In this document: one piece after another, positions 1,984 through 38,867 of the stretch
Layout: every line of letters starts with the position of its first letter
Position numbering within the stretch: position 1 is the stretch's first letter
From: a virus
Lineage: Duplodnaviria > Caudoviricetes
Direction: 5' to 3' (one strand)
Length of the DNA: 40,049 nt
IMG/VR virus record: IMGVR_UViG_3300038365_000080
Span: 1-40,049 of that record
Notes under the pieces: model-generated
Seen by the model: the letters and a program-made list of their open reading frames with translations, nothing else
What the model was told of the DNA's origin: nothing
Databases searched by the model: none
Position numbers and translations under genes: made by a program

Positions 1984-2337
1984 GTGAGTGTGGTGGGTAA
2001 AGGTACACCCGAATATAAGAACCCCTTAGAAATGCTCTTGAAGAGTTGTCGTAAAGCAATTCAAGATAAGGTTGACGTCAACCCAAAATCTGGTTTAAAA
2101 GTAGGGGACAATAAAATCAGATATTCTGAGGCTTTAGACTTACTTACTGCCCTAGAGCATCATTTTGCTGTAAAAGGAGCATTCAGTTTTGGTATTTGCC
2201 TAACTTGTACTAAGTTCAGCTCTAAGGGGATGTATCCTGAAAAGCCAGTTACTTTGGGTAAATGCGGCAGCAAAGTAGTCAGTATTTTTGATTGCTGTGA
2301 ACAGCACAGTAAGGAAGGTGGGGGTTATGGCCTATAA
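1984..2337 (+). CDS. Hypothetical protein with Cys-rich C-terminus
   Basis: ORF 1963-2337; GAGGTG RBS precedes in-frame GTG at 1984; CxxC...C...CC..H cluster; overlaps polA start. Confidence 0.65.
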   Translation: MSVVGKGTPEYKNPLEMLLKSCRKAIQDKVDVNPKSGLKVGDNKIRYSEALDLLTALEHHFAVKGAFSFGICLTCTKFSSKGMYPEKPVTLGKCGSKVVSIFDCCEQHSKEGGGYGL

Positions 2338-4051
2338 ATATGCTGTCTTAGATATAGAATCTACTGGGGTAAACCGATACAAAGACGACATAAATTACAC
2401 AGGTATTGGTTTAGTAAGAGACTTGGGTTCTGACATGGATAAACGAATTATTTGCAATATGCATCAAGACAAAGACCTGGATAAGTTCAAAAGAATAGCC
2501 CGAAAACTGAAAGAACAGAAAGTCATACTTATTTGGCAAAACGGCAAATTTGATACTCTATTCATTCAGTTAAAGTATGGTATCCTATTACCCATACATC
2601 ATGATATTATGGTTATGGGTACAGCTTATGACCTAGCTGCTCCCCACGGGCTCAAAGAAATGAGCAAGAGTTGGCTGGGATTGCCCGATTGGGATATACC
2701 CCTGAAAGAAAAGAAAAAACCCAATAGCCTCACAGTTGAGAAATACTTGGTAAAAGACTTGGAGAACCCATGGAAATTGTTCCAGTTCTTTAATCGAAAA
2801 CTCAATACCCAACAGTGGAAAGCTTACAAGCATCTGCTCAGACCAGCGTTTTTGATGTATCGTAGGGCTGAACGAACTGGAATATACCTCAATAAACCTG
2901 AACTATCCAAAGTTCGTAAGACTTACCGTAAACAACAAGAAGATAAGCTGGCTGTACTCAATAAACAATACAATATAAACTGGAATAGCCCAAAACAGGT
3001 ATCTGATGTATTATTCAATAAAGAGCATATGCCTGTGATAAAGCTATCCCAAAAGACTGGAGAACCTTCCAGTGATGCCAAAGTACTCAAAAGACTGAAA
3101 TCAAAGGGATTCACCCTTGCTGAACAATTACTTGATTACAAATTCTATTATGGGGCTAACTCAAAATTTCTCAATCGCTGGGAAGATGATGCTTTTTATG
3201 ATGGTAGGATACACCCAAATTTCAATCTTACCAACGTAGTAACCGGCAGGACATCTTGCTCAGACCCTAATTTACAGCAGGTTCCCAGGAATAAAGAGCT
3301 CAGAACCCTATTTACAGCCCCTCCAGGCAGGGTACTATTAGAGGCAGACTACTCACAGATAGAGCTGAGAATAGCTGCAGATTATGCGAATGAGCCCACT
3401 ATGTTGAAAATATACAAAGAAGGAGGTGATATACACACAGAAACGGCCATGTCTTTAACAGGATTATCCGCAGAACAGGTAAAGGGAGAACCCAGAAGTA
3501 GAGCAAAGCCTGTTAATTTCGGATTTCTGTATGGAATGTCAGCTAAAGGATTTGTAAGTTACGCTTTTGACAATTATGATACAGTATTCAGCAAACTGGA
3601 GGCTGACAGGTATCGGCAATTGTTTTTTATCAAGTATCCGGGTCTACTGAAATGGCATAAAGAAATGGAGATTATCTGTGAGGCTCAAGGAGGTGTCGAG
3701 AATAGGTTTGGTAGATTCAGAAAACTACCAGACATATATTCTTCTGACAACTATATTCGTAGCAAGGCTGTGCGCAGAGCCGTAAATAGCCCAGTTCAGG
3801 GTACAGCCTCAGACTTGTTACTGTTAGCAGCAGTAGAAATAGACAAAACCTTGAGAAAACCGCTAGACCTGAGTATAGTTGGTACGGTACATGACAGTAT
3901 ATTGATGGACGTACCAGAGAATAATGTCGATGAGGCTGTTAGAGAGGTCAAAAGGATTATGGCCCACCCACAGGCTCTTGATATATTTGGCGTATCCTTT
4001 AAAGTACCTATTGAGGCAGATGTAGGTATTGGGGCCTGGGGTAGTAAATAA
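2327..4051 (+). CDS. polA: Family A DNA polymerase with 3'-5' exonuclease, no 5'-3' exonuclease
   Basis: ExoI DIES, ExoII QNGKFD; TGRTSCSDPNLQQVP; motif A ADYSQIELR; motif B RSRAKPVNFGFLYG (Phe762-type); motif C TVHDS; ATG 2327 follows GGAAGGTGG RBS. Confidence 0.96.
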   Translation: MAYKYAVLDIESTGVNRYKDDINYTGIGLVRDLGSDMDKRIICNMHQDKDLDKFKRIARKLKEQKVILIWQNGKFDTLFIQLKYGILLPIHHDIMVMGTAYDLAAPHGLKEMSKSWLGLPDWDIPLKEKKKPNSLTVEKYLVKDLENPWKLFQFFNRKLNTQQWKAYKHLLRPAFLMYRRAERTGIYLNKPELSKVRKTYRKQQEDKLAVLNKQYNINWNSPKQVSDVLFNKEHMPVIKLSQKTGEPSSDAKVLKRLKSKGFTLAEQLLDYKFYYGANSKFLNRWEDDAFYDGRIHPNFNLTNVVTGRTSCSDPNLQQVPRNKELRTLFTAPPGRVLLEADYSQIELRIAADYANEPTMLKIYKEGGDIHTETAMSLTGLSAEQVKGEPRSRAKPVNFGFLYGMSAKGFVSYAFDNYDTVFSKLEADRYRQLFFIKYPGLLKWHKEMEIICEAQGGVENRFGRFRKLPDIYSSDNYIRSKAVRRAVNSPVQGTASDLLLLAAVEIDKTLRKPLDLSIVGTVHDSILMDVPENNVDEAVREVKRIMAHPQALDIFGVSFKVPIEADVGIGAWGSK

Positions 4052-4064
4052 AGGAGGAAATTTT

Positions 4065-4568
4065 GTGAAGATATTTGTTATTAACGGTTATCCTGGTAGT
4101 GGTAAGGATAAGTTTGTGAGATTGTGCGCCCGGCACAGTAAGATACCTGTAGTTAATTACGTTACCAGTACCCCAGCTAAATTGGCTTTACACCTATTAG
4201 GCTGGAGAGGGGAAGAAAAAACCCCAGAAGTACGCAAAGCCCTGGCTGATTTAATGGAGTTATCTGAAACCTTATTTAATGGGGTTATTGCTGCTACTGA
4301 GGCTAAACTTATTAGAGCTATGGAGGACTACGGCGATAATTGTATTGTATTTATACACTGCAGAGAACCCAGGAATATAGACTACTACAGAGAAAAGCAC
4401 GGAGCTGTGACAGTATTCATAAACAGAAACGATACAAAGCAGAAACGATTCAGTAATGAATCCGATGCAAATGTGGAGAACTATGAATATGACATAGTTA
4501 TACAGAATAACAAATCTTTGAAGATATTGGAGCAAAAAGCTGTAGATTTTGTAGGGAGGTATTGCTAA
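4065..4568 (+). CDS. P-loop deoxynucleoside-monophosphate kinase-like protein
   Basis: VINGYPGSGKD Walker A; FIHCREP; NHxSD-like NESD and YDIVIQN motifs; AGGAGG RBS before GTG 4065. Confidence 0.75.
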   Translation: MKIFVINGYPGSGKDKFVRLCARHSKIPVVNYVTSTPAKLALHLLGWRGEEKTPEVRKALADLMELSETLFNGVIAATEAKLIRAMEDYGDNCIVFIHCREPRNIDYYREKHGAVTVFINRNDTKQKRFSNESDANVENYEYDIVIQNNKSLKILEQKAVDFVGRYC

Positions 4569-5221
4569 TGCTTATTAATTGTGTTAATAATGCAACAGAG
4601 GCCTGGGAATGGTGGTATGACAGACTATTAGAACAAAAGAACCAGCAACCCTCCAGAGATGGGACTGTAGTTGGTGAATTTCTTAATGCTTGTACCGTTA
4701 TTAAAGACCCCCGGCAGGGATTGGTTTTATCCAAAAAACGTGATTTATCCATAAAATATGCTGTGGGTGAGCTGCTCTGGTATTTATCTGGTAGTAACAT
4801 GGTTTCGGCCATATCCCCTTACTCAAAAGTCTGGGAAAAGTTGTCTGACGATGGAGAAACTGTTAATTCTGCCTACGGTCACCGAATTTACCACAAGTTT
4901 GGGTTTGACCAGTGGGAATATGTGAAAGGTCTATTAAAGGCTGACCCTCTTAGCCGTCAAGCAGTTATACACATAAAAGAGCCAAATAATCAACCTACTA
5001 AGGATTTACCATGCACTATCTGTATACAGTACTTTATTCGGGATAATAGGCTTCATAGCACGGTATATATGCGTAGTAATGATATCTGGATGGGTTTTCC
5101 TTATGACGTATTCTGTTTTACTTCTCTCCAGGTCAAGATGGCCATGGAGCTAGGAGTTAACTTGGGCGAATATACCCACATAGCTGGTTCGCTACATCTT
5201 TATGAAAGGAATGTGAAGTAG
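4562..5221 (+). CDS. Thymidylate-synthase superfamily enzyme, dCMP (hydroxy)methylase-like
   Basis: SAYG, SRQA, catalytic PC (DLPCT), MRSND, HIAGSLHLY motifs; GFPYD has Asp where canonical ThyA has Asn (GLPFN). Confidence 0.85.
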   Translation: MLMLINCVNNATEAWEWWYDRLLEQKNQQPSRDGTVVGEFLNACTVIKDPRQGLVLSKKRDLSIKYAVGELLWYLSGSNMVSAISPYSKVWEKLSDDGETVNSAYGHRIYHKFGFDQWEYVKGLLKADPLSRQAVIHIKEPNNQPTKDLPCTICIQYFIRDNRLHSTVYMRSNDIWMGFPYDVFCFTSLQVKMAMELGVNLGEYTHIAGSLHLYERNVK

Positions 5222-5523
5222 TGGCATTAAGTAAGATTCAGTACAAAATTGGAGATTCCTGGGTACATTTTTGTTATGTAGAGGACATGTTTAAAGACAA
5301 GATAGGAGAAGCAGTTGAAAAAATCAATCGCTGGGCTCAACAGGATTTTGGTATTGAATCCATCAAAACTAGGAAAGACCTGGCGAATTTGAAAGAAAGA
5401 ATCAAGAATAACTACAAGGAACTGTACCCAGAACTGTTTCGGGCAAGCCGAACTGATAATCAGGGGTGGGCCAGAGTATGGTTTACCCAACACCTGAGGG
5501 AGGAATTGAAAAATGGCAAATAA
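5221..5523 (+). CDS. Hypothetical protein
   Basis: 100-aa ORF translationally coupled to flanking genes. Confidence 0.7.
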   Translation: MALSKIQYKIGDSWVHFCYVEDMFKDKIGEAVEKINRWAQQDFGIESIKTRKDLANLKERIKNNYKELYPELFRASRTDNQGWARVWFTQHLREELKNGK

Positions 5524-5884
5524 CAAAGAGATAAGTCTGCCGCCCATAGTGGCGGTGGACTTTGATGGTACTCTAGTAGAGGACAAGTTTCCAGAGATAG
5601 GGCCAATTAATCAGGATATGTTCGACAGAATACATAGGTATCAACAAGAAGGATATAAAGTCATCCTGTGGACTTGTAGGACTCAGCAAAGGCTTGATGA
5701 TGCCATACTTTTCTGTGCCTTTAACGGTCTGCACTTCGATGCTGTAAACGACAATATACCAGAAGTTATTGAAAAATACAACGACAATGCCCGCAAAATA
5801 TATGCTGATATTTACATAGATGACAAAAATTTATCTATCAAGGAGGCATGCAATGTCTGGTTACATAAATTCCAACAGGCGTGA
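5513..5884 (+). CDS. HAD-superfamily phosphatase (nucleotidase-like)
   Basis: AVDFDGTL motif I, ILWTCR motif II, K..ADIYIDDKN motif IV. Confidence 0.88.
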   Translation: MANNKEISLPPIVAVDFDGTLVEDKFPEIGPINQDMFDRIHRYQQEGYKVILWTCRTQQRLDDAILFCAFNGLHFDAVNDNIPEVIEKYNDNARKIYADIYIDDKNLSIKEACNVWLHKFQQA

Positions 5885-8192: not shown

Positions 8193-8467
8193 TTAAGCCC
8201 TTCAATACGGTTGAATAAATCATGTATAAAGTTAGCACCCCTACTAAACAAGATACCAGTTATTATCTGGCCTATTATTGGGTATATGAATATTAGCCCA
8301 AGTAAGGCGCAGACATCTAGTTGACCAGCAAGTGCAATTAACAAGCCTACCACAAGAGCACCTATCCGGTCTACTTGGAACTTGCCTTGTTGCCATACCA
8401 TTTTAGATGTCTCCCAAACAGATTCAGCTATTATCGCAGCTACCAAAATAATAAACAATACCTCCAT
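8180..8467 (-). CDS. Holin-like membrane protein
   Basis: 95 aa with 2-3 hydrophobic segments, GILFSRGANFIHDL motif common in Firmicute phage holins; last gene of lysis block. Confidence 0.8.
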   Translation of the reverse strand: MEVLFIILVAAIIAESVWETSKMVWQQGKFQVDRIGALVVGLLIALAGQLDVCALLGLIFIYPIIGQIITGILFSRGANFIHDLFNRIEGLKAPE

Positions 8468-9234
8468 TATATCCCTCCTAACCCATGCCGGTTACAAAAC
8501 TTCCGCAGGAATTCACTTCTAACCGCAAAACCCATACCTTCCACAGCCACATCAACAAACTTGCTTCTGACTACTCCAACAACTTCGCCCCTACCGTTTA
8601 TAACTGGCCCTCCGCTATTTCCAGGATTGATTGGAGCGTCAGTAGACAATAAATTTGGGTCTTCAATTGGGTTGTCTGACCGCCTAGGGCTGGTAATTAC
8701 CCCCTGTGACCAAGTATAGGGGTAGCCTTGGGGAGATCCAATTACAGCTACATGCTGACCGTGATAGACCTCTCCTTGATAAACCTTTAAGGCGTTATTA
8801 GACACAGGAGCTTTGAGTAAGGCCAAGTCATAGTTGGTATCTACAGCTACTACTGTAAGCGGTTTTAAGTGGATCTTATCATTATCCGATACAATAGTTA
8901 GCGTACCAGCCCCATTTACTACATGGAAATTTGTAATAATATATTCAGGGCTTACAAAAAAGCCAGTACCTAGGCCACCATCCTTCCTATACACAGTAAC
9001 TACAGAATCTAAGACCTTTTTAACCAAGTCTCTTCCAACAATACACGCCTGGAAGGTTATGCGGGAAGCAATTGACGCCATTTCTTCCCTAGTGATGGCA
9101 TTACCAGGCTTAAAGGTGCCGTCAGGATAGCCCGACATAACCCCAGTATCTACACACCTAACAATGTCTGGATAACTCCAACTAGCTGGGTCTACATCCT
9201 TAAAAATACTGCTCAAAAATACCTCTCCTTTCAC
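8467..9234 (-). CDS. SLH-domain plus trypsin-like serine protease (likely start TTG 9216)
   Basis: SLH: FKDV..W....GVMSGYPDGTFKPGNAITREEMA; protease triad TNFHVV, DLALLK, GNSGGP; no PDZ domain, no signal peptide. Confidence 0.9.
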   Translation of the reverse strand: MKGEVFLSSIFKDVDPASWSYPDIVRCVDTGVMSGYPDGTFKPGNAITREEMASIASRITFQACIVGRDLVKKVLDSVVTVYRKDGGLGTGFFVSPEYIITNFHVVNGAGTLTIVSDNDKIHLKPLTVVAVDTNYDLALLKAPVSNNALKVYQGEVYHGQHVAVIGSPQGYPYTWSQGVITSPRRSDNPIEDPNLLSTDAPINPGNSGGPVINGRGEVVGVVRSKFVDVAVEGMGFAVRSEFLRKFCNRHGLGGI

Positions 9235-25984: not shown

Positions 25985-27253
25985 TTAGCACCCCCTTGGT
26001 TTATTCACAGGCCCTAAGTGTTTCTTCATATCGTCCTCACAAGCGTACCGAGTAGCATCAATAGTGTGGTTATTCTCATCCTCCAGCTTGTTCTTGATGT
26101 TACCATCCTTATCTATCTGGTAGTCTATACTCTCGTATTCTCTGGCTATGTTTGGAGTTCTCCTAGAATCTATGACTATCTCTTCCAGGTCATCCAGCCA
26201 TTTCTCACCGTATTCTACACTGCCAGGGCCTTTTCTAGCCCCAAAGCACCTGAGCCCATACGTTTTCATTTCGTCAACACTCTTGGGCTCTGCTGAATCT
26301 GCCTTGATTCTTGTATCGTTGCACTTCTTACTTATTATTTCTGTAGCTGCTTCTCTGTTACTGAGCTTGACCCCATATACTTCATCGATAAAGTAAATTA
26401 TCCTTTTCCTCTTATCGTAGTGTAACCGAACAAAAGCAAAGGGGTCAGCAGCATAGCCCCAGTCTATTCCCTGTCGTATGTTATCAAATCTGGCTATCTC
26501 TGCATCTGTTATCTCTCTGAATACCAAATTATCAAAGGGTACTACTCCACCACCTATCGGTTCACCCAAATAAATCCACTTATATTTGTGTAGGTTCCTC
26601 TTCTTGTCTTCTTCTGCCTCTTCCAGAAAGGCTTCAGAAACATGTGGATTATCCATGTAGGTTGAGTGATGCACGTATGTATTAGGAGGCAGAAACTGGG
26701 TGTTGTACTTTTTGTTCACCCAGTTCTGCTTCCGTTTGGGGGGGTTATAGGAAAAGAAGATGTTGTATTTTAAGCCTCTGGCCAATTTGGCCCTGAGTAC
26801 AGACTTAACTATTGTGTCTACTTCTTCTTCAGTCTTAAATTCGCTGAGTTCTTCAATCCACAGTATAGTAATAGGGTATTTCGAGGTCTTGATACTCTTG
26901 ATTTTATTAGGCTCGTCTGCCCCTCTGAATATTATCCTATTCCCTCTGGGTAAGTATACCAGTCCTAATGGGCTCTTGGTTGATTTCCAGTATTTACCAA
27001 CACCCAAATAGTCAATAGCCCAACACAGTTGCTCAAATACCGACTCACTTAGGGTGTTTGCTACTTTCCTAATAACCAAAGCATTTACTGGGTGTCTCAT
27101 CATATCAACAATTATGCGTTCACTAATATGAGTGGACTTAGCACTGTTTCGTCCACCCTTTAATACTTTATATAGATACTTCTCATCGTTACAAGCTAAC
27201 CAAAAAGGATGAAACGCTGGAAGTATTTTTTCGCTCAGTCTTAACTGTATCAT
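25985..27253 (-). CDS. terL: Terminase large subunit (PBSX family)
   Basis: KGGRNSAKS, IEE, SYNPP, GIDWG..DP, ADSAEP, NH.IDA.RY. Confidence 0.96.
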   Translation of the reverse strand: MIQLRLSEKILPAFHPFWLACNDEKYLYKVLKGGRNSAKSTHISERIIVDMMRHPVNALVIRKVANTLSESVFEQLCWAIDYLGVGKYWKSTKSPLGLVYLPRGNRIIFRGADEPNKIKSIKTSKYPITILWIEELSEFKTEEEVDTIVKSVLRAKLARGLKYNIFFSYNPPKRKQNWVNKKYNTQFLPPNTYVHHSTYMDNPHVSEAFLEEAEEDKKRNLHKYKWIYLGEPIGGGVVPFDNLVFREITDAEIARFDNIRQGIDWGYAADPFAFVRLHYDKRKRIIYFIDEVYGVKLSNREAATEIISKKCNDTRIKADSAEPKSVDEMKTYGLRCFGARKGPGSVEYGEKWLDDLEEIVIDSRRTPNIAREYESIDYQIDKDGNIKNKLEDENNHTIDATRYACEDDMKKHLGPVNKPRGC

Positions 27254-27741
27254 TTGATATCGTCTATAATCTGAACCTGCATATCGGCATCAACCTTCAG
27301 ATTATCTGTAAACATACCCAGATGCCTACCCAATAACTCCAGGGCTTTCAACTTGTCATGCAACTTGACTTTCCTGGTCTTGGTTTTACCGTTTATAGTC
27401 TCTTCAATACTTGATAAGACCTTACCATCAACTTGGTCGCAAGGTCTAAGGCCGATTCTACCAGTTTTAGTCCATTTGACGAAGTCAGTCAAGTCAGCAA
27501 AAGCTATCCTGGCAAGCTCCGCAATAACCATATCAGGGGTAACCCCCATAAGTTTGCGCTCCTCAATTCTCTCGTCAATCAAAGCCTTTATGTCTGGATT
27601 ATTCAGCAGGTTCTGACCTGTACCCCCGTTCTTGTAACCAGCTCTAAGAGCAGCCTGGTAGGAGTCCAGGTCTTTCAGGTATTCCTCCACAAATAAAAGC
27701 TGTTTACCATAAAAAACCATATCCACCACCCTCACGCGCAC
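27250..27741 (-). CDS. terS: Terminase small subunit (start may be ATG 27720)
   Basis: KQ..FVEEYL.D....AA.RAGY, ELARIAF, KL.DKLKALELLGRHLGMF. Confidence 0.92.
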   Translation of the reverse strand: MRVRVVDMVFYGKQLLFVEEYLKDLDSYQAALRAGYKNGGTGQNLLNNPDIKALIDERIEERKLMGVTPDMVIAELARIAFADLTDFVKWTKTGRIGLRPCDQVDGKVLSSIEETINGKTKTRKVKLHDKLKALELLGRHLGMFTDNLKVDADMQVQIIDDIK

Positions 27742-29583: not shown

Positions 29584-29970
29584 GTGACTGAACGAAAGAA
29601 AAAGAATCAAGGTATGAACTGGATACGTCAAGAAAAACGGTTAGCTATCTACATCAGAGACGGTCTTGAATGTGCTTACTGCCACTCTAATATAGAAGAT
29701 ACTAAACTCACTCTGGACCACCTCATCCCTTATTCTAAGGGTGGTTCTAATGACCAGACTAATCTGGTTACTTGCTGCCACAGATGCAATTCCTCCAGAG
29801 GAACCAAAGATTGGAAAGAATTTGCTGAGTCTGTAGCTCAATACTACAACACTTCCGGCTCATACATAATAGATTACATTACCAAAACTACTCAAAAACC
29901 TCTGAATGTACCTCAGGCCAAGCAGATACTCCAGCAGAGAAAGGAGGCCAAGAATGTACACGGAAACTAA
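29584..29970 (+). CDS. HNH endonuclease
   Basis: RD...CAYC, LTLDH.IP...GG.N...NLVT.C..CN. Confidence 0.9.
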   Translation: MTERKKKNQGMNWIRQEKRLAIYIRDGLECAYCHSNIEDTKLTLDHLIPYSKGGSNDQTNLVTCCHRCNSSRGTKDWKEFAESVAQYYNTSGSYIIDYITKTTQKPLNVPQAKQILQQRKEAKNVHGN

Positions 29971-30751
29971 GTACCCCGATAAAGTCTATAAGCACCACCA
30001 CTTTGAGGCTATTTCGGAACTTCTTTCCTATATTAATACTACTCCGATTTCGGATATATTCTCTTCACGGTCTCAATCCTCTCACAACAAGGGAAATTCT
30101 GAGTGGTACGGTACTTCTTCTTTTGAAGAGGCTCTCATACTACTTCAACAAGGTTGGTGCCCAGAGGCAAAACAACTGTCTGAGAAGGTTCCTATTAAAA
30201 CTACTCAATCCTCTCTACAGTCTCAAAGGCCGACACACTCAGTAGTGGGTTATCAAGCATCAGTACCCCGATACTTACAGGGTATACCAACTAACATGAT
30301 AACATCAAAGCCAGTCACTAATAAACAGAAAATAATAACTCTGTACAAATCCCTATCTTACGCTTCAAGAATATCTACTTCTGAAATTGAGCGTGAAGGA
30401 ATCAAGGCTCTGCAGATTATTCAGGCTCTGGAGGGTAAAGGATACCGGGTGAAACTCAATATGATTTGGTTATCTCGCAAAACTAGAGAGATTGCTACTT
30501 TGTCTCTTACAGTTAAAAAACCACAAGACCGTCTGTCTCTGATAAAGATGGCTTTTCCTCTGGTTCACCCCTCAATGCTGCGTAGAATCTGTTTAGCCTG
30601 GATGGAGCGCAATCCCCATCTTCGAGAAAATTTCACTCAGGGTTATGGTAGACCATGCCCAGAGGATTTCATACCTCAAAAGGGTGAGATTTTCTTACCC
30701 CCTTTTATTACAGATGTCGGGGAGTTCGTGGACTCACTAAATTTAAGTTAG
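29954..30751 (+). CDS. Putative degenerate VWA-like partner of the AAA+ ATPase
   Basis: AGGAGG RBS before ATG 29954; G....VP.YL.G.P..M, LE..G.RV, HPS.LRR, GYG.P motifs; adjacent to MoxR-like ATPase. Confidence 0.65.
   Translation: MYTETKYPDKVYKHHHFEAISELLSYINTTPISDIFSSRSQSSHNKGNSEWYGTSSFEEALILLQQGWCPEAKQLSEKVPIKTTQSSLQSQRPTHSVVGYQASVPRYLQGIPTNMITSKPVTNKQKIITLYKSLSYASRISTSEIEREGIKALQIIQALEGKGYRVKLNMIWLSRKTREIATLSLTVKKPQDRLSLIKMAFPLVHPSMLRRICLAWMERNPHLRENFTQGYGRPCPEDFIPQKGEIFLPPFITDVGEFVDSLNLS
29967..29999 (+). repeat. 33-bp direct repeat, copy 1
   Basis: CTAAGTACCCCGATAAAGTCTATAAGCACCACC identical to 32578-32610. Confidence 0.95.
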
Positions 30752-30763
30752 GAGGCATATTTA

Positions 30764-31852
30764 ATGAGAAAGCTTAACGAATTACAAGTCGGTGACGAGG
30801 TTGCTCTGGTAAACTTCACAGGTAAACTGAGGATAGACACACTCAAGATAGACAGTATTGAAATTGGTGACAGCGTAGACCTTTTCTTTGTAGTCAATCT
30901 CAAAAACGGTGCTGAGGGCCACTTCGATGTCAACACCGGCAAACAGCTGAATGCGGCTGAACCTAAGTACGCTAACTTTATTATGCTACCTGAATATGCC
31001 CCCGATAAAGTTGCCCCGACCAAGCGCAAGTCCAAACGTGAAAAGACTATAGATTTTGACCCTACTCCCGTCCAGACACAAGACGGTATCGTGAAACACA
31101 GTAAGCACTCCACCATCTTGACTTGTATCAAGGCTGATATCCCGGTCTATCTTGTAGGTGAGGCTGGAACTGGTAAAAACTTCACTCTACAGTCTATCGC
31201 TGAAGAACTCAATCTCCAGTTCTATTTTACTAACTCAGTACAGCAAGAGTTCAAAATTACTGGGTTTATCGATGCTGGAGGTACATACCACGAGACTGAA
31301 TTTTACAAAGCGTTCACCAACGGTGGATTATTTTTCCTGGACGAGATAGATGCATCAATCCCAGAAGTTCTTGTACTTCTTAACGCTGCTATTGCTAATC
31401 GGTATTTTGAATTTCCCAACGGTCGTATAGATGCCCACCCAGACTTTAGGGTTGTAGCTGCCGGGAATACTTGCGGCTCTGGGGCGGACGAGCTGTATAC
31501 TGGCCGTCTTGTACTTGACTCAGCCACTCTGGATAGGTTTGTGGTTATCGAATTTGACTATGACAAAAACATAGAACTCTCATTATCCCACAACAACGAG
31601 CACTTAGTCAATTTCGTGAGACAAATCCGCAAATTCGCAAAAAATCACGGTATCCGTGCTACATTCTCTTACCGCTGTATAATGTCAATCTCCAAGCTGG
31701 AGTCAGCCGGGATGCCTCTCAAGACTATCCTGGAAATAGCGGTATTCAAGGGCCTGGATAAAGACACTATAAAGATGTTCAAGACTGATTACTCTCTGGG
31801 TTCTTGCGGTAGATACTATTACGCTCTGGAAGAACTGAAAAAAGCTGCTTAA
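30764..31852 (+). CDS. MoxR/CbbQ-like AAA+ ATPase with extra N-terminal beta domain
   Basis: GEAGTGKN, FLDEID, HPDFRVVAAGNT, LDSATLDRF. Confidence 0.9.
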   Translation: MRKLNELQVGDEVALVNFTGKLRIDTLKIDSIEIGDSVDLFFVVNLKNGAEGHFDVNTGKQLNAAEPKYANFIMLPEYAPDKVAPTKRKSKREKTIDFDPTPVQTQDGIVKHSKHSTILTCIKADIPVYLVGEAGTGKNFTLQSIAEELNLQFYFTNSVQQEFKITGFIDAGGTYHETEFYKAFTNGGLFFLDEIDASIPEVLVLLNAAIANRYFEFPNGRIDAHPDFRVVAAGNTCGSGADELYTGRLVLDSATLDRFVVIEFDYDKNIELSLSHNNEHLVNFVRQIRKFAKNHGIRATFSYRCIMSISKLESAGMPLKTILEIAVFKGLDKDTIKMFKTDYSLGSCGRYYYALEELKKAA

Positions 31853-35672: not shown

Positions 35673-35680
35673 AACAAACT

Positions 35681-35701
35681 GGGGCCTTTGTGCCCCTTTT
35701 T
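35681..35701 (+). terminator. Rho-independent terminator
   Basis: GGGGC-CTTTGT-GCCCC-TTTTT. Confidence 0.65.
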
Positions 35702-35721
35702 GTATTTAAGGAGGTTGCTGT

Positions 35722-36705
35722 ATGTACAATATTCCTGGCGATACAGGTCATCCTTGGAGGCTTAATAAGTTTATGGAATACCACAGTTTGGGCGATTTCG
35801 ATATGAATTTTCCTATACTAACCCGATATGCTGAAAAACACCACCTATCTATCAAGAATAGGCTATGGATGGCTTATCTGTACTCTACCTGCTATTGTGT
35901 GGGTACTACAATTTTCTTGTTTGAGGAATTGCCCCTGGACGATATTCTGACTCCTAAAAAAGTCAGAGATTTCTGGAGTATATTCAAAGCCCCTCTGATA
36001 TTCCAGACAGACCGTAGATATGTAAAGAACATGAATTGGTTCATACCTTTGGTTTCAGACTGGATGAAGAAAGTAGGGCACAATCCTGTAAGGTATTTCA
36101 AATCTCTACAGGCTAAGAATCCCCACGAAACTTACCTTAACCTGTATAAAGAAATGATGAAGTGGCGTTACTTTGGGCGATTTACTACTTTCCTGTTTAT
36201 TGAAGCTGTTACCAAGCTTACCCCTATCAAAGCTGACGCTGATTGGTTTGACTGGAAAAATGGTAATACTGCTACTTCTGGTATGTTGCATATACTATAC
36301 CTAGACGAAGAGGCAAGTGATTTTGATATCCATGGGTATATTGAACCTTGCACCTTACGGTTGCTAGAAAAGAGACTGCCCCAAGTAATCAAGGCTATTC
36401 AGAAACAATATCCCCAAGTATCTACAAATATTACAGACTTAGAAACATCCCTGTGCGGTTTCAGAAAACTGTTCAAGGGCACTCGATACGGTGGTTACTA
36501 TATAGACCGGGTACAGGACGAAATCATAAAACTACAAGCAAATTTGCCCGATTATAACTATATGTGGGAGGAACTGTGGGGCTATCGCTTAGAGGCATTT
36601 AACCATCAATTTCTAGGTGAAGTTCAAGGATACAAGGGTATACAGAAACATCGTTGTAAGGAGTGGTTGGAAAAAGGGGTGGTTGGGATTGAGGGTATTA
36701 GTTAA
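35722..36705 (+). CDS. Amino acid:DNA transferase (aGPT-pyrophosphorylase, HhH-glycosylase fold)-like base-hypermodification enzyme
   Basis: W.AYLY..CY, TDRRY, FGRF..FLF.E, ETSLC.FRK....RY.GYYIDR motifs; neighbour of a P-loop kinase. Confidence 0.75.
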   Translation: MYNIPGDTGHPWRLNKFMEYHSLGDFDMNFPILTRYAEKHHLSIKNRLWMAYLYSTCYCVGTTIFLFEELPLDDILTPKKVRDFWSIFKAPLIFQTDRRYVKNMNWFIPLVSDWMKKVGHNPVRYFKSLQAKNPHETYLNLYKEMMKWRYFGRFTTFLFIEAVTKLTPIKADADWFDWKNGNTATSGMLHILYLDEEASDFDIHGYIEPCTLRLLEKRLPQVIKAIQKQYPQVSTNITDLETSLCGFRKLFKGTRYGGYYIDRVQDEIIKLQANLPDYNYMWEELWGYRLEAFNHQFLGEVQGYKGIQKHRCKEWLEKGVVGIEGIS

Positions 36706-37270
36706 CATAAGAGGGTGCAACGGTGCTGGTAAATCCACAATACCTATCTCTATGATGGATGACCCAAAGAGGGAGGTTATTGGTATTGAAGGAGGCAAAC
36801 GGCCCTATCTTACAGTATTCCCTACTTACGGCTGGGTTGCTCTAGGTACATACTTTAACAAGACTGGAGGCTTGGATACTTACAAGAATAACCTGGAGAC
36901 CAGACAAGCCCTGTTTGCAGCATTGAACTATACCGAAATGGATGTACTTATGGAAGGAGTCATAGCATCTACCATAAAATCGACCTATGTGGACTTATTT
37001 AGAGACTTGCAAAAAGACAGCTTTAAACGTAAAATTATCATAATGTCTTTCTTACCCCCAATAGAAACATGCTTGGAGCGTATATATCAACGAAATGGCA
37101 ATAAACCCATAAAAGAAGAACAAGTAAAAGGTAAGTGGAGAACAGTTGACCGAAATGTTGAATACTTCAGGCAGCAAGGTTTTACTTCTCTCAGGATTGA
37201 TACCTCCAGAGTTACCAAAGACCAGATGTTGCCACGATTCTTGAAAACCGTAGATAAATATAGGAGGTGA
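36689..37270 (+). CDS. P-loop kinase, candidate hydroxymethyl-pyrimidine DNA kinase
   Basis: VNIRGCNGAGKST, LG.Y....GG.D, V.MEG, C.ERI..RN; overlaps transferase gene end. Confidence 0.75.
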   Translation: MRVLVNIRGCNGAGKSTIPISMMDDPKREVIGIEGGKRPYLTVFPTYGWVALGTYFNKTGGLDTYKNNLETRQALFAALNYTEMDVLMEGVIASTIKSTYVDLFRDLQKDSFKRKIIIMSFLPPIETCLERIYQRNGNKPIKEEQVKGKWRTVDRNVEYFRQQGFTSLRIDTSRVTKDQMLPRFLKTVDKYRR

Positions 37271-37274
37271 GTCC

Positions 37275-37454
37275 ATGTCTAACAGAATTTCATTAACCCC
37301 AAAACCAGACAGAGACCAAAAGAACTACAGGTTAGCCAAAAGATTCCTACTAGCTTCAAGCATAGCCTTGGTACTAGCTGTGCTAGACCTTTATGTAATA
37401 AACATCAGCCCATACATTATTGCCTTTTACGTGGCTTGGAAGGTGATAAAGTGA
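37275..37454 (+). CDS. Small membrane protein (59 aa)
   Basis: AGGAGGTGA RBS; MSNRISL...FLLASSIALVLAVLDLYVINISPYIIAFYVAWKVIK. Confidence 0.65.
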   Translation: MSNRISLTPKPDRDQKNYRLAKRFLLASSIALVLAVLDLYVINISPYIIAFYVAWKVIK

Positions 37455-38077
37455 TACTAAAGCTGGATAAACACACATCCGGAGGTAATTATATTCCAGT
37501 AACAATACAAGTTAAGAGGGTAAAATCCTCTTTACTGTTGGAGTATCAGTGCGACTTGCCTACTCGCAATCTGAGATGTACAAAAGGTGATGGTTGTCCT
37601 AAGTATGGGGCAAGACCTTGTTGCCCTCCTAAAGCACCATTGTTTAGTCATCTTAAAACACGCAGATTTGTTTACCTTGTTATGGTTCAGATACGGACTG
37701 AAGACTATATCGCTATGCGGCCTAGTATGCCAGAAAACAAGAAAATATACTTTACTATGGGAGGCATCAAGATTATATCCGGTAAACTGGTAAACAAAAC
37801 AGTTAACCAATTTGAGGGCCAAAAATTCAAGTCTAGCGGTTGTGGAGGTTGCCAGTATTCTAAAACGGGTAAGTGCAAAGATTTTCAGCCTATGCTGGAG
37901 GGATTGGGTATAAATGTAGTAGAATTAACGAAAGACGTATTTGATTTTGATATACAATGGTTTATCAAAGGCTCCAGAGCTTTACCCGATATAATAACAG
38001 GCGTGGGCGGTATCTATACCGATGAAGTTATACCCAAATCAAAATTTAAGGAGGTAATTGAGAATGTTTGCCGTTAA
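37451..38077 (+). CDS. Cys-rich predicted metal-binding protein (DUF2284-like)
   Basis: C....CPKYG....CPP, GCGGC.....C, P.LEGLGINV..L motifs. Confidence 0.7.
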   Translation: MILKLDKHTSGGNYIPVTIQVKRVKSSLLLEYQCDLPTRNLRCTKGDGCPKYGARPCCPPKAPLFSHLKTRRFVYLVMVQIRTEDYIAMRPSMPENKKIYFTMGGIKIISGKLVNKTVNQFEGQKFKSSGCGGCQYSKTGKCKDFQPMLEGLGINVVELTKDVFDFDIQWFIKGSRALPDIITGVGGIYTDEVIPKSKFKEVIENVCR

Positions 38078-38525
38078 TATGTTAAAATTAGCAAGCACCT
38101 ACGCCAAATTACAGTCTGGATGTTTAAAGGTACAGGTTGGTTGCGTAATTGCCAGAGACAACAAAATATTAGCTCTAGGAGCAAATCGAACTATCCTAAA
38201 TCTATGTAAGACTTCTCGTGGTTGCCTAAGGGTAGAAAAGTATGGGGAAAATACAAAAGACCACCGCAATCCTGAAGATTGCCGGGCTATTCATTCAGAG
38301 ATTGATGCTATTTGTAATAGTCAAGGTAATCTGTATGGAGCTACTATGTACGTAACCCGATACCCTTGTGAGGCTTGTGCTAGAGCAATTATAGCTGCTG
38401 GCATAAGTAGAGTGGTATATGGTCGGGAACAAGAAATATCTCCTGAAACTGCCCGAATATTTGAACACTATAATGTGGACATAACCCATTATTGGGGATT
38501 TACAGAAGAGGACGTGAATTACTAA
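38064..38525 (+). CDS. dCMP deaminase-family protein
   Basis: S.C.K.QVG.VI, HSE.DAI, T.YPCEACA..I..AGI..V. Confidence 0.9.
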   Translation: MFAVNMLKLASTYAKLQSGCLKVQVGCVIARDNKILALGANRTILNLCKTSRGCLRVEKYGENTKDHRNPEDCRAIHSEIDAICNSQGNLYGATMYVTRYPCEACARAIIAAGISRVVYGREQEISPETARIFEHYNVDITHYWGFTEEDVNY

Positions 38526-38537
38526 GGGGGGAGAATT

Positions 38538-38867
38538 TTGGAAAAGTTGTTGAAGAGGGCCCAGAACACCTATGGTTACACTAATCAGATTACAGTAGCT
38601 ACTGAAGAGCTGTGTGAATTAGCTTGTGTGTTGGCTAAATATCCCCGGTATCATAACCATGAGGCTGCCTGTGCTGACCTAAGAGACAGAGTAGTTGATG
38701 AATTAGCTGACGTTACTGTAGTTAGTAAGCACGTACAGATGATTTTTGACATAACTGATGAAGAACTACAAGACCGAATTCAAGCAAAATTGGATAGATT
38801 GGAGCGTTGGCTGGATACAGATTCCTCCATGGAAACTACTGTAAAAGACCGTGAGGTGAGGGAATGA
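38538..38867 (+). CDS. MazG-like all-alpha nucleotide pyrophosphohydrolase
   Basis: YG...Q....EE..EL.....K, DELADV, K..R. Confidence 0.8.
   Translation: MEKLLKRAQNTYGYTNQITVATEELCELACVLAKYPRYHNHEAACADLRDRVVDELADVTVVSKHVQMIFDITDEELQDRIQAKLDRLERWLDTDSSMETTVKDREVRE

Follow-up and report, generated by a model that had tools for sequence, protein, structure and literature searches.

In the kinase/transferase systems of DNA hypermodification characterised in the literature that we examined, the pathway invariably starts from a dUMP hydroxymethylase or from a TET/JBP oxidase. Among their enzymes, SP10 gp186 phosphorylates 5-hydroxymethyluracil (hmU) in DNA, ViI gp247 is a serine:DNA transferase, and PaMx11 gp46, represented by the structures 8Z2N and 8Z2M, is a glycinyltransferase for 5-phosphomethyl-deoxyuridine (5-PmdU) (PMC11472151). 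Here, we describe a compact cassette with members of the same enzyme families in a Caudoviricetes virus, IMGVR_UViG_3300038365_000080; the whole stretch of DNA analysed, positions 1 to 40,049 of that record (40,049 nucleotides), is referred to below as the window. The cassette is real, combining familiar post-replicative enzymes with an unexpected precursor route that probably ends on thymine. Its genes, with protein lengths in amino acids (aa), are as follows.

35722..36705, + strand: amino-acid/amine:DNA transferase (aGPT-Pplase2, AADT), 327 aa; PF18724, E 5e-15.
36683..37270, + strand: 5-hydroxymethylpyrimidine DNA kinase (5-HMUDK family, P-loop), about 195 aa; PF18748 HMUDK_HMUD1, E 2e-22.
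37275..37454, + strand: hydrophobic open reading frame (ORF) of 59 aa; no Pfam or PHROG match.
37451..38077, + strand: DUF2284 Cys-rich protein, 208 aa; PF10050, E 5e-9.
38064..38525, + strand: Zn-dependent deoxycytidylate deaminase of a distinct subfamily (GAN for GYN; HSEIDA); PF00383, E 3e-17.
38538..38867, + strand: MazG-like all-alpha nucleoside triphosphate (NTP) pyrophosphatase, 109 aa; phrog_2245 NTP pyrophosphohydrolase, E 4e-16.

All five operon genes lie on the + strand with abutting or overlapping ends and are coupled to the start of the primase gene. A preliminary description of this DNA had placed five tightly coupled genes here; the Pfam and PHROG assignments confirmed them in place, together with the 59-aa ORF 37275-37454, which that description did not list and which is probably unrelated to the pathway.

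The HMM and structure searches clearly placed the 327-aa protein in the transferase family and not among ordinary glycosylases. Its PF18724 match reached 56.2 bits against a curated cut-off of 26.2, the previously noticed motif ETSLC..RK..RY.GYYIDR was confirmed, and ViI gp247 showed 25% identity across 93% of the query; the closest AADT of a cultured phage is that of LysYB1 (35%). A sequence search of the PDB with the transferase gave nothing significant, and the placement came from the fold search. For the structure model (pLDDT 92), the top three Foldseek rows were the PaMx11 gp46 structures 8Z2N/8Z2M (probability 1.00, TM 0.51-0.55, E about 1e-3), the next row having an E of 1.8. An ungapped alignment pairs residues E241, T242 and C245 with E222, T223 and C226 of the phage 15599 Pplase2, and the N-terminal D25/D27 correspond to its D25. 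The 15599 counterparts of E241/T242/C245 are needed for metal binding and catalysis (PMC13458397), and Glu243/Thr244 of PaMx11 gp46 hold a metal that binds thymine O4 (PMC11472151). From this alignment, D25, E241 and T242 are predicted to form the metal site and C245 to be the catalytic residue; the N4 amine of a cytosine would bind a metal of such an O4 site poorly. Among the related loci, which are cited here by L numbers, an AADT and an HMUDK are fused in one 488-aa frame (L106:7654-9117), and two AADT genes stand in tandem in L087:9977-11901.

The kinase matched PF18748 with 80 bits (cut-off 27), and it shares 48% identity with the kinase domain of SP10 gp186 and 47% with the kinase of LysYB1. 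Its Walker A and MEG motifs are intact, G10, G13, G15, K16, E90 and G91 being invariant with the SP10, ViI and Ab18 kinases. The TTG start, inferred from the relative L004, gives 195 aa versus the earlier 194. The kinase gene overlaps that of the transferase in the window and is present in most related loci; a PDB sequence search with the kinase matched no solved structure. Its PHROG label, "terminase small subunit", was rejected, the actual small terminase being encoded at 27250-27741. Thus, PF18724, PF18748 and the PaMx11 gp46 fold match bear out the earlier view that these are AADT- and 5-HMUDK-family genes of a hypermodification pathway.

The genes that would supply the precursor form a second block.

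2330..4051, + strand: family A DNA polymerase; PF00476, E 3e-89.
4065..4568, + strand: deoxynucleoside monophosphate kinase; PF21448, E 5e-6, slightly below cut-off; phrog_139, E 1e-12.
4568..5221, + strand: thymidylate-synthase homolog with the signature of a dCMP hydroxymethylase; KDLPC (L143D), RSND (D169 kept), FPYD (N177D).
5221..5523, + strand: conserved 100-aa protein, directly after the hydroxymethylase in group A (defined below).
5513..5884, + strand: small HAD phosphatase; phrog_1238, E 4e-27.

According to published residue rules, L143D/E marks a hydroxymethylase, a retained D169 means that the enzyme is not a hydroxylase, and N177D marks the use of dCMP (PMC13326640); in mutagenesis, Asp at position 177 shifts the preference to dCMP (PMC13326640, PMC8670742). 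The best PDB match of the window enzyme was the CMP hydroxymethylase MilA (E 4e-30 versus 1e-17 for ThyA). On these residues, the enzyme encoded at 4568-5221 is predicted to be cytosine-type and would form 5-hydroxymethyl-dCMP (hm-dCMP) from dCMP; the preliminary description had also taken it for cytosine-type, and N177D, L143D and the MilA match uphold this. A 5-hydroxycytosine synthase was rejected, as D169 is kept, and a dCMP methylase is less likely, given L143D.

Relatives of the hydroxymethylase were taken as the best 80 of 581 loci. Group A comprises PolA phages and was defined by the presence of the 100-aa or the HAD gene, so that the counts of these two genes are partly circular. Group B comprises AB434P2-like phages with glycosyltransferase-like genes and a dUTPase_2-like enzyme, which is absent from group A. 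When 92 transferase loci were fetched (not deduplicated), 32 held a hydroxymethylase within the fetched DNA, and 31 of these 32 enzymes were Asp-type. All eight enzymes examined from a thymine context (Ab18, LysYB1, L092, SP10, SPO1, 15599, P26218 and ctfPj964) were Asn-type; Rhodoferax phage P26218 and ctfPj964, tried as cultured or annotated Asp-type examples, were accordingly rejected. In a quick maximum-likelihood tree of 65 sequences, the Asp and Asn enzymes split with a support of 100, the presence of a transferase was scattered across many branches, and the window enzyme grouped with glycosyltransferase-linked Asp-type enzymes, apart from the dUMP hydroxymethylases. The hydroxymethylases of three group A phages (L048, L050, L066) were nested among the group B enzymes. 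In many related loci, the transferase, kinase, nucleotide kinase, hydroxymethylase, 100-aa and HAD phosphatase genes form one run. Our literature searches yielded no Asp-type hydroxymethylase in company with AADT/HMUDK, though members could be contained in the contig figure of PMC8989533, in the similarity network of PMC13458397 or among the deaminases listed in the preprint cited below.

Taken together, the data make it reasonably probable that hm-dCMP or hm-dCTP is deaminated to an hmU nucleotide, that hmU replaces T, and that the kinase and the transferase then add an amine. The Asp-type hydroxymethylase would make 5-hydroxymethyl-dCMP, and the deaminase, likely the bridge from hm-dC to hm-dU nucleotides, would convert the hydroxymethyl-dC mono- or triphosphate to the 5-hydroxymethyl-dU nucleotide. 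The family A polymerase would incorporate the modified deoxynucleoside triphosphate, so that hmU would take the place of T and cytosine would stay mostly canonical, and the HAD and MazG-like enzymes would drain dTMP/dTTP and perhaps leaked hm-dCTP. In the DNA, the kinase would make 5-phosphomethyl-dU; Cys245 would then attack C6 with the metal on O4, the phosphate would leave, and the donor amine would join the exocyclic methylene. Only some of the hmU bases would be decorated by the kinase and transferase. Such a pathway would likely yield a new modified base, and its purpose is likely protection from host restriction.

The deaminase itself departs from the canonical form. The GYN tyrosine is missing in all 26 group A deaminases (GYNG and HAExNA are kept in 15/15 of group B), an Asp stands three residues past the catalytic Glu in 24 of the 26, and four solved dCMP deaminases have an aromatic residue at the GYN tyrosine position. 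The gene was found in 19/19 near-complete group A records and in 23/27 group A records searched (13 metagenome loci lay outside this search), and on the window circle it is about 6 kb from the hydroxymethylase gene. Seven phage deaminases encoded beside thymidylate-synthase homologs are reported to convert 5hmdC nucleotides to 5hmdU in E. coli DNA, and one of the enzymes described, mSCD-B5, deaminates 5hmdCTP (bioRxiv 2024.12.05.627091). The window deaminase is predicted to act on a hydroxymethylated nucleotide as well, its altered pocket motifs being only a lead to such selectivity. The presence of a deaminase was tried and rejected as a discriminator of the modified base: taken alone it is not diagnostic, because group B loci and cytosine-modified contigs carry one too. 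The MazG-like profile matches YpjD (2GTA, E 0.005); it gave a strong match in 29/30 group A records and weak matches in group B, and none in the cultured phage collection, the six reference phages or the 15599 dTTPase/dUTPase gp18.

Which base is modified was approached through restriction sites. Observed palindrome counts were compared with Markov expectation for sites with at least 8 expected occurrences, seven G/C-only palindromes being included, and a locus was scored as depleted when at least one G/C-only site fell below 0.35 of expectation. Loci shorter than 11 kb and near-duplicates were dropped, which reduced the AADT loci from 57 to 30, the AADT-less ones from 20 to 11 and group B from 23 to 18. 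The results showed G/C-only depletion in 28 of the 30 AADT loci, in 8/11 AADT-less group A loci and in all four Asn-type controls (SPO1, SP10, LysYB1, L092), and in only one of 19 Asp-type glycosyltransferase (group B) phages, VPE25 included; among outgroup loci without a detected hydroxymethylase, 5/9 were depleted. In the window, CGCG occurs once against 14.8 expected (P 6e-6), GGNCC 56 times against 123, and GGCC 104 against 136. The three group A phages with a group B-type enzyme (L048, L050, L066) have CCGG counts of 0/33, 0/40 and 0/11 (observed/expected). The cytosines of VPE25 are modified (PMC4999554); bare hydroxymethylcytosine (hmC) DNA resists 82% of type II enzymes, and HaeIII, MspI and HhaI digest hmU DNA to completion (PMC7653180). 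The depletion, the contrast with VPE25 and these cutting data together indicate that the cytosines of group A look unprotected. As a separate observation, GATC is depleted in 12/19 of group B, and G/C-only sites are not.

Markers of a thymine pathway point the same way. PF18723 (aGPT-Pplase1) is present in Ab18, SP10 and LysYB1, in 24/30 group A records and in 0/14 group B records. HAD and DUF1599 genes beside the hydroxymethylase are common to group A, SPO1, SP10 and LysYB1, and in both SPO1 (gp30.2) and LysYB1 the second gene past the dUMP hydroxymethylase is a HAD homolog, so that the HAD protein is a candidate dTMP nucleotidase; its absence from 18 group B loci is partly circular, as HAD helped define group A. 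The site depletion, PF18723 and the O4-binding metal site thus favour a thymine-position base, and the leaning of the preliminary description towards a cytosine derivative is less supported.

A number of observations weigh against hmU as the modified base or against the reversed route to it. In the window, CCGG (80/79), CCNGG (130/143) and GCNGC (95/92) are not depleted, the pooled G/C-only ratio of 0.79 is a moderate signal, and GATC (7/106) and TGCA (69/120) are themselves depleted. TG/TC hypermodification protects GATC/TGCA-type sites in phage 15599 (PMC13458397), and TGCA in T-modified controls stands at a similar level (median 0.74). The relative L005 has CGCG at 14/13, the Asn-type Pseudomonas phage Ab18, outside the control set, has no site under the threshold, and in five GC-rich loci of group B, GGCC and GGNCC are mildly depleted (about 0.5-0.8). 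Because the two groups are of different lineages and probably of different hosts, kinship inflates the Fisher P of 3e-10 for the depletion; besides, depletion can be a relic of the past or the work of modification-dependent nucleases. As to the enzymes, the metal-binding Glu is missing in 5 of the 21 parsed group A transferases (L009, L019, L045, L048, L050), which possibly use a variant mechanism; the LysYB1 transferase is likewise without this Glu before the catalytic Cys. Deaminases occur in 15/18 group B loci and accompany Asp-type enzymes in cytosine-modified contigs (PMC8670742), and selectivity for hydroxymethylated substrates is a polyphyletic trait with no residue rule in the published accounts available to us. 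Finally, TAGT glycosyltransferases, named for TET-linked systems, occupy the tailoring slot in many relatives.

These points bear on several other explanations. The broadest of them is that a widespread group of phages of anaerobic Firmicutes, with genomes of 39-57 kb, attaches amines or amino acids to 5-hydroxymethylcytosine, either by itself or along with hmU; the "hmdU" kinase and transferase would then act on cytosine and yield a chemically new class of base, and DUF2284 would be a new metal-dependent enzyme on that DNA. This is a tentative idea that we regard as doubtful. In its strict form, which we consider unlikely, hm-dCTP would replace dCTP, the kinase and transferase would put an amino acid on 5-hydroxymethylcytosine, the MazG-like enzyme would be a dCTPase, and the deaminase would merely feed dUMP to the host. 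The N177D and L143D signature with MilA as the nearest solved relative, the 31 of 32 Asp-type enzymes beside related transferases (often in one gene run), the sister position to the enzymes of glycosyltransferase phages, and the undepleted CCGG and CCNGG of the window all agree with this, and thiolate attack at C6 works on cytosine too, as established for C5 methyltransferases. However, cytosine hypermodification is hard to bring together with the G/C-only depletion in 28/30 loci, with the retained O4-binding metal site, or with the markers shared with T pathways and the lack of the group B dUTPase_2-like enzyme in group A.

Modification of both pyrimidines, after the logic of Xp12, which draws 5-methylcytosine (5mC) and T from one 5mdCTP pool, is improbable. 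Here hm-dCTP would serve at C, fully or partly, and its deaminated share would supply the hmU for decoration. The moderate depletion of the window (pooled 0.79) would suit such a mixture, and AADT/HMUDK occur together with a TAGT glycosyltransferase in 13 deduplicated loci; yet full hmC should relieve the selection on GGCC, CCGG and CGCG, and these dual-set loci are among the most depleted (GGNCC in 11/13). A paper of 2019 reported having seen no phage in which both bases were modified (PMC6449724).

Equally improbable is the ordinary order of events, in which the deaminase would make dUMP and the Asp177 enzyme would use it, perhaps aided by its 100-aa neighbour, to give a T-position base. The T-type signals would fit this equally well. 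The 100-aa gene follows the enzyme in 39/41 group A loci and never in group B (a count that is partly circular, since group A was defined by the 100-aa/HAD gene), and its length is close to that of the extra C-terminal part of Asn-type enzymes (342-394 aa versus 217). However, the profile of the 100-aa protein found no match in the C-termini of the Asn-type enzymes, so that a split C-terminus of dUMP hydroxymethylases has no support; the protein has no Pfam, PHROG or Atlas match either. Moreover, 8/8 T-context enzymes are Asn-type and, as far as the tree includes them, make up a clade of their own, Asp177 shifts the preference to dCMP in the mutagenesis cited above, and three group A phages hold a group B-type enzyme. 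It is very improbable that the transferase gene encodes a repair glycosylase or that the cassette is inactive, with canonical or bare hydroxymethyl bases in the DNA. HhH glycosylases do have a related fold (weak Ogg matches, E about 4), and some group A phages lack AADT and HMUDK; but the frames are intact, the catalytic and metal residues conserved and the kinase always adjacent, and by both sequence and fold the protein is closest to characterised transferases.

The donor used by the transferase may differ from those described. The donor-choice positions of the 15599 enzyme (G227, H230, D238, D243) correspond to G246, K249, G257 and D262 in the window transferase. The first and third of these are Lys and Tyr in glycine transferases, and the diamine enzyme (G, H, D, D in 15599) requires its acidic pair (PMC13458397). 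The window residues fit neither the glycine (K, Y) nor the diamine (G, H, D, D) pattern, and the donor is probably neither glycine nor a diamine. A roomy pocket with one Lys weakly suggests, on an ungapped alignment, that a larger amino acid may be the donor, which we put forward with low confidence. The Pfam scan of 46 ORF queries from the window, with some small ORFs outside the scan, detected no PLP (pyridoxal phosphate), radical SAM, GNAT or flavin enzyme, in accordance with the earlier statement that no known tailoring enzyme is present; nor was a glycosyl- or carbamoyltransferase or a TET/JBP protein detected among the window ORFs scanned. The donor pocket fits no characterised pattern, and the suggestion that the base may be undescribed also stands.

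Among the operon members named by the preliminary description, the deaminase and DUF2284 were both found in place; as a core part, however, DUF2284 did not hold up, and it fills a swappable slot. It lies directly before the deaminase gene, where most relatives carry PF18723, within about 2.5 kb. Among 30 group A records, PF18723 was found in 24, DUF2284 in 5 and both in none; the last one, a record of 75% completeness, is missing the entire region. In L003:3266-3916 and L041:11715-12362, the DUF2284 allele is swapped relative to window 37451-38077 (about 43% identity) between flanks that are 94-96% identical, which suggests exchange under selection. Seven Cys are invariant across 12 homologs. 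The protein had no significant PDB match by sequence and none by Foldseek in PDB/BFVD (E 0.75), and in the Atlas search it clustered with DUF2284 alone; its model weakly resembles the folds of the MetH reactivation domain (Z 6.4 against the tool threshold of 8, root-mean-square deviation 3.9, 134 aligned), of CblD (Z 5.8) and of nitroreductases. PF18723 occurs without a detected kinase in several group A phages, and M6 gp55, in the context of the PF18723 family, is reported as dispensable for the first transfer step. Our guess is that DUF2284 stands in for PF18723 in maintaining or tailoring hmU DNA; our literature searches found no phage role for it.

The tailoring slot of group A holds AADT plus HMUDK, a TAGT glycosyltransferase, a radical SAM/SPASM protein, FkbM or other methyltransferases, or nothing. 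A search with the transferase profile, run without a positive control, hit 0/32 records from group B and AADT-less group A. The slot is empty in L162:9600-11464, L156:9513-11457 and L151:9646-11476, which have DUF1599, an Asp-type hydroxymethylase, the 100-aa gene and HAD there, with PF18723 and a deaminase elsewhere in the record; in these candidates, the reversed route may give DNA with bare hmU. A TAGT glycosyltransferase with radical SAM/SPASM fills it in L015:11454-13421, L058:11516-14164, L127:7025-9031 and L140:7361-9294, and if the group makes hmU, these sets could furnish phage DNA with a glycosylated thymine akin to base J. Further genes that may serve in tailoring, next to AADT/HMUDK (L069:4774-5421, L094:1662-2303, L110:8543-9388, L148:412-1227, L009:8967-9980), encode FkbM and class I methyltransferases and an iron-alcohol-dehydrogenase/DHQ-synthase-like protein. 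In group B, L147, L113, L123, L130 and others from gut or rumen combine an Asp-type hydroxymethylase with glycosyltransferase-like, radical SAM/SPASM and cytidylyltransferase genes; AB434P2 (L006:416-5582) is a cultured member whose enzyme is annotated as a dUMP hydroxymethylase, yet is Asp-type. Outside group A, L272, a contig of a Paceibacterota bin, carries Asp-type hydroxymethylase, PF18723-like and PolA genes and hints that the arrangement may reach into other hosts.

The phage has a circular genome of about 38.85 kb, in which the portal, tail tube and tape measure genes are SPP1-like, and no integrase was detected among the window ORFs scanned. The contig ends (1-1195 and 38855-40049) overlap over 1195 bp with 88% identity (140 mismatches, no gaps) and represent two alleles of the 5' part of the primase gene. 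The circle was therefore probably closed across two strains or is a recombinant, and the record may be a two-strain mosaic; both gene blocks are joined unbroken, in the same gene order, in the independent contigs L001, L003, L004 and L005. The best-matching sequencing runs are fermentation metagenomes. Among 40 loci from prokaryote genomes, a single 54 kb contig, from a Lachnospiraceae bin, matched group A; this contig and an S-layer-homology protein suggest a host among the Clostridia. The latter, at window 8467-9234 (- strand), fuses an S-layer-homology domain to a trypsin-like peptidase, next to an amidase and an XhlA-like holin, and suggests an S-layer-bearing host. A possible terminator was noted by eye at 35680-35705, between the gene for the single-stranded DNA-binding protein (SSB) and that of the transferase: a short G/C hairpin with a run of T after it. 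A DUF7192 gene followed by a CbbQ/NirQ/NorQ-like AAA ATPase (a MoxR-type pair, 29906-31852) has no bearing on the cassette.

Either outcome would be new, whether a reversed hmU route via a hydroxymethyl-selective deaminase or an amino-acid-bearing cytosine. The Asp177 rule for predicting cytosine-modified genomes can mislead when a deaminase follows. The group as a whole presents swappable tailoring genes (TAGT, radical SAM/SPASM, FkbM and other methyltransferases) on one precursor, DUF2284 gains its first functional lead, as a PF18723 stand-in, and a deaminase with a preference for 5hmC and new transferases for labelling DNA would be of practical use.

With M6, PaMx11, YuA, ViI, phiW-14, SP10 and SH-Ab 15599, the window shares the kinase and transferase families, the E-T-x-x-C motif and the fold, and systems of the M6/ViI/SP10 type also have a deaminase and an NTP pyrophosphatase alongside. 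In these systems, however, hm-dUMP is made from dUMP by an Asn177 enzyme, whereas the sole such enzyme of the window is Asp177; the window ORFs scanned included none for a PLP, radical SAM, flavin or acetyltransferase enzyme, and PF18723 is replaced by DUF2284. The Xp12/mSCD type is alike in that an Asp-type thymidylate-synthase homolog and a PF00383 deaminase give a T-position nucleotide from a C5-modified cytidylate. In Xp12, 5mC fully replaces C and deamination leads to ordinary dTTP, whereas in the window it would give hm-dUTP, and C looks unprotected. T4, VPE25 and the AB434P2-like phages with glycosylated hmC share the hydroxymethylase family with its signature, the deoxynucleoside monophosphate kinase and a deaminase gene. 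They differ in having glycosyltransferases and, in group B, the dUTPase_2-like enzyme, in lacking AADT, PF18723 and HAD, in their undepleted G/C-only sites, and in a deaminase that keeps the canonical GYNG. Finally, the Firmicute hmU phages SPO1, SP10 and LysYB1 resemble the window in HAD and/or DUF1599 after the hydroxymethylase, in the family A polymerase and in the site-depletion pattern; they are Herelleviridae of 132-144 kb with Asn-type enzymes, in contrast to the window with its 39 kb, siphovirus-type tail and SPP1-like portal.

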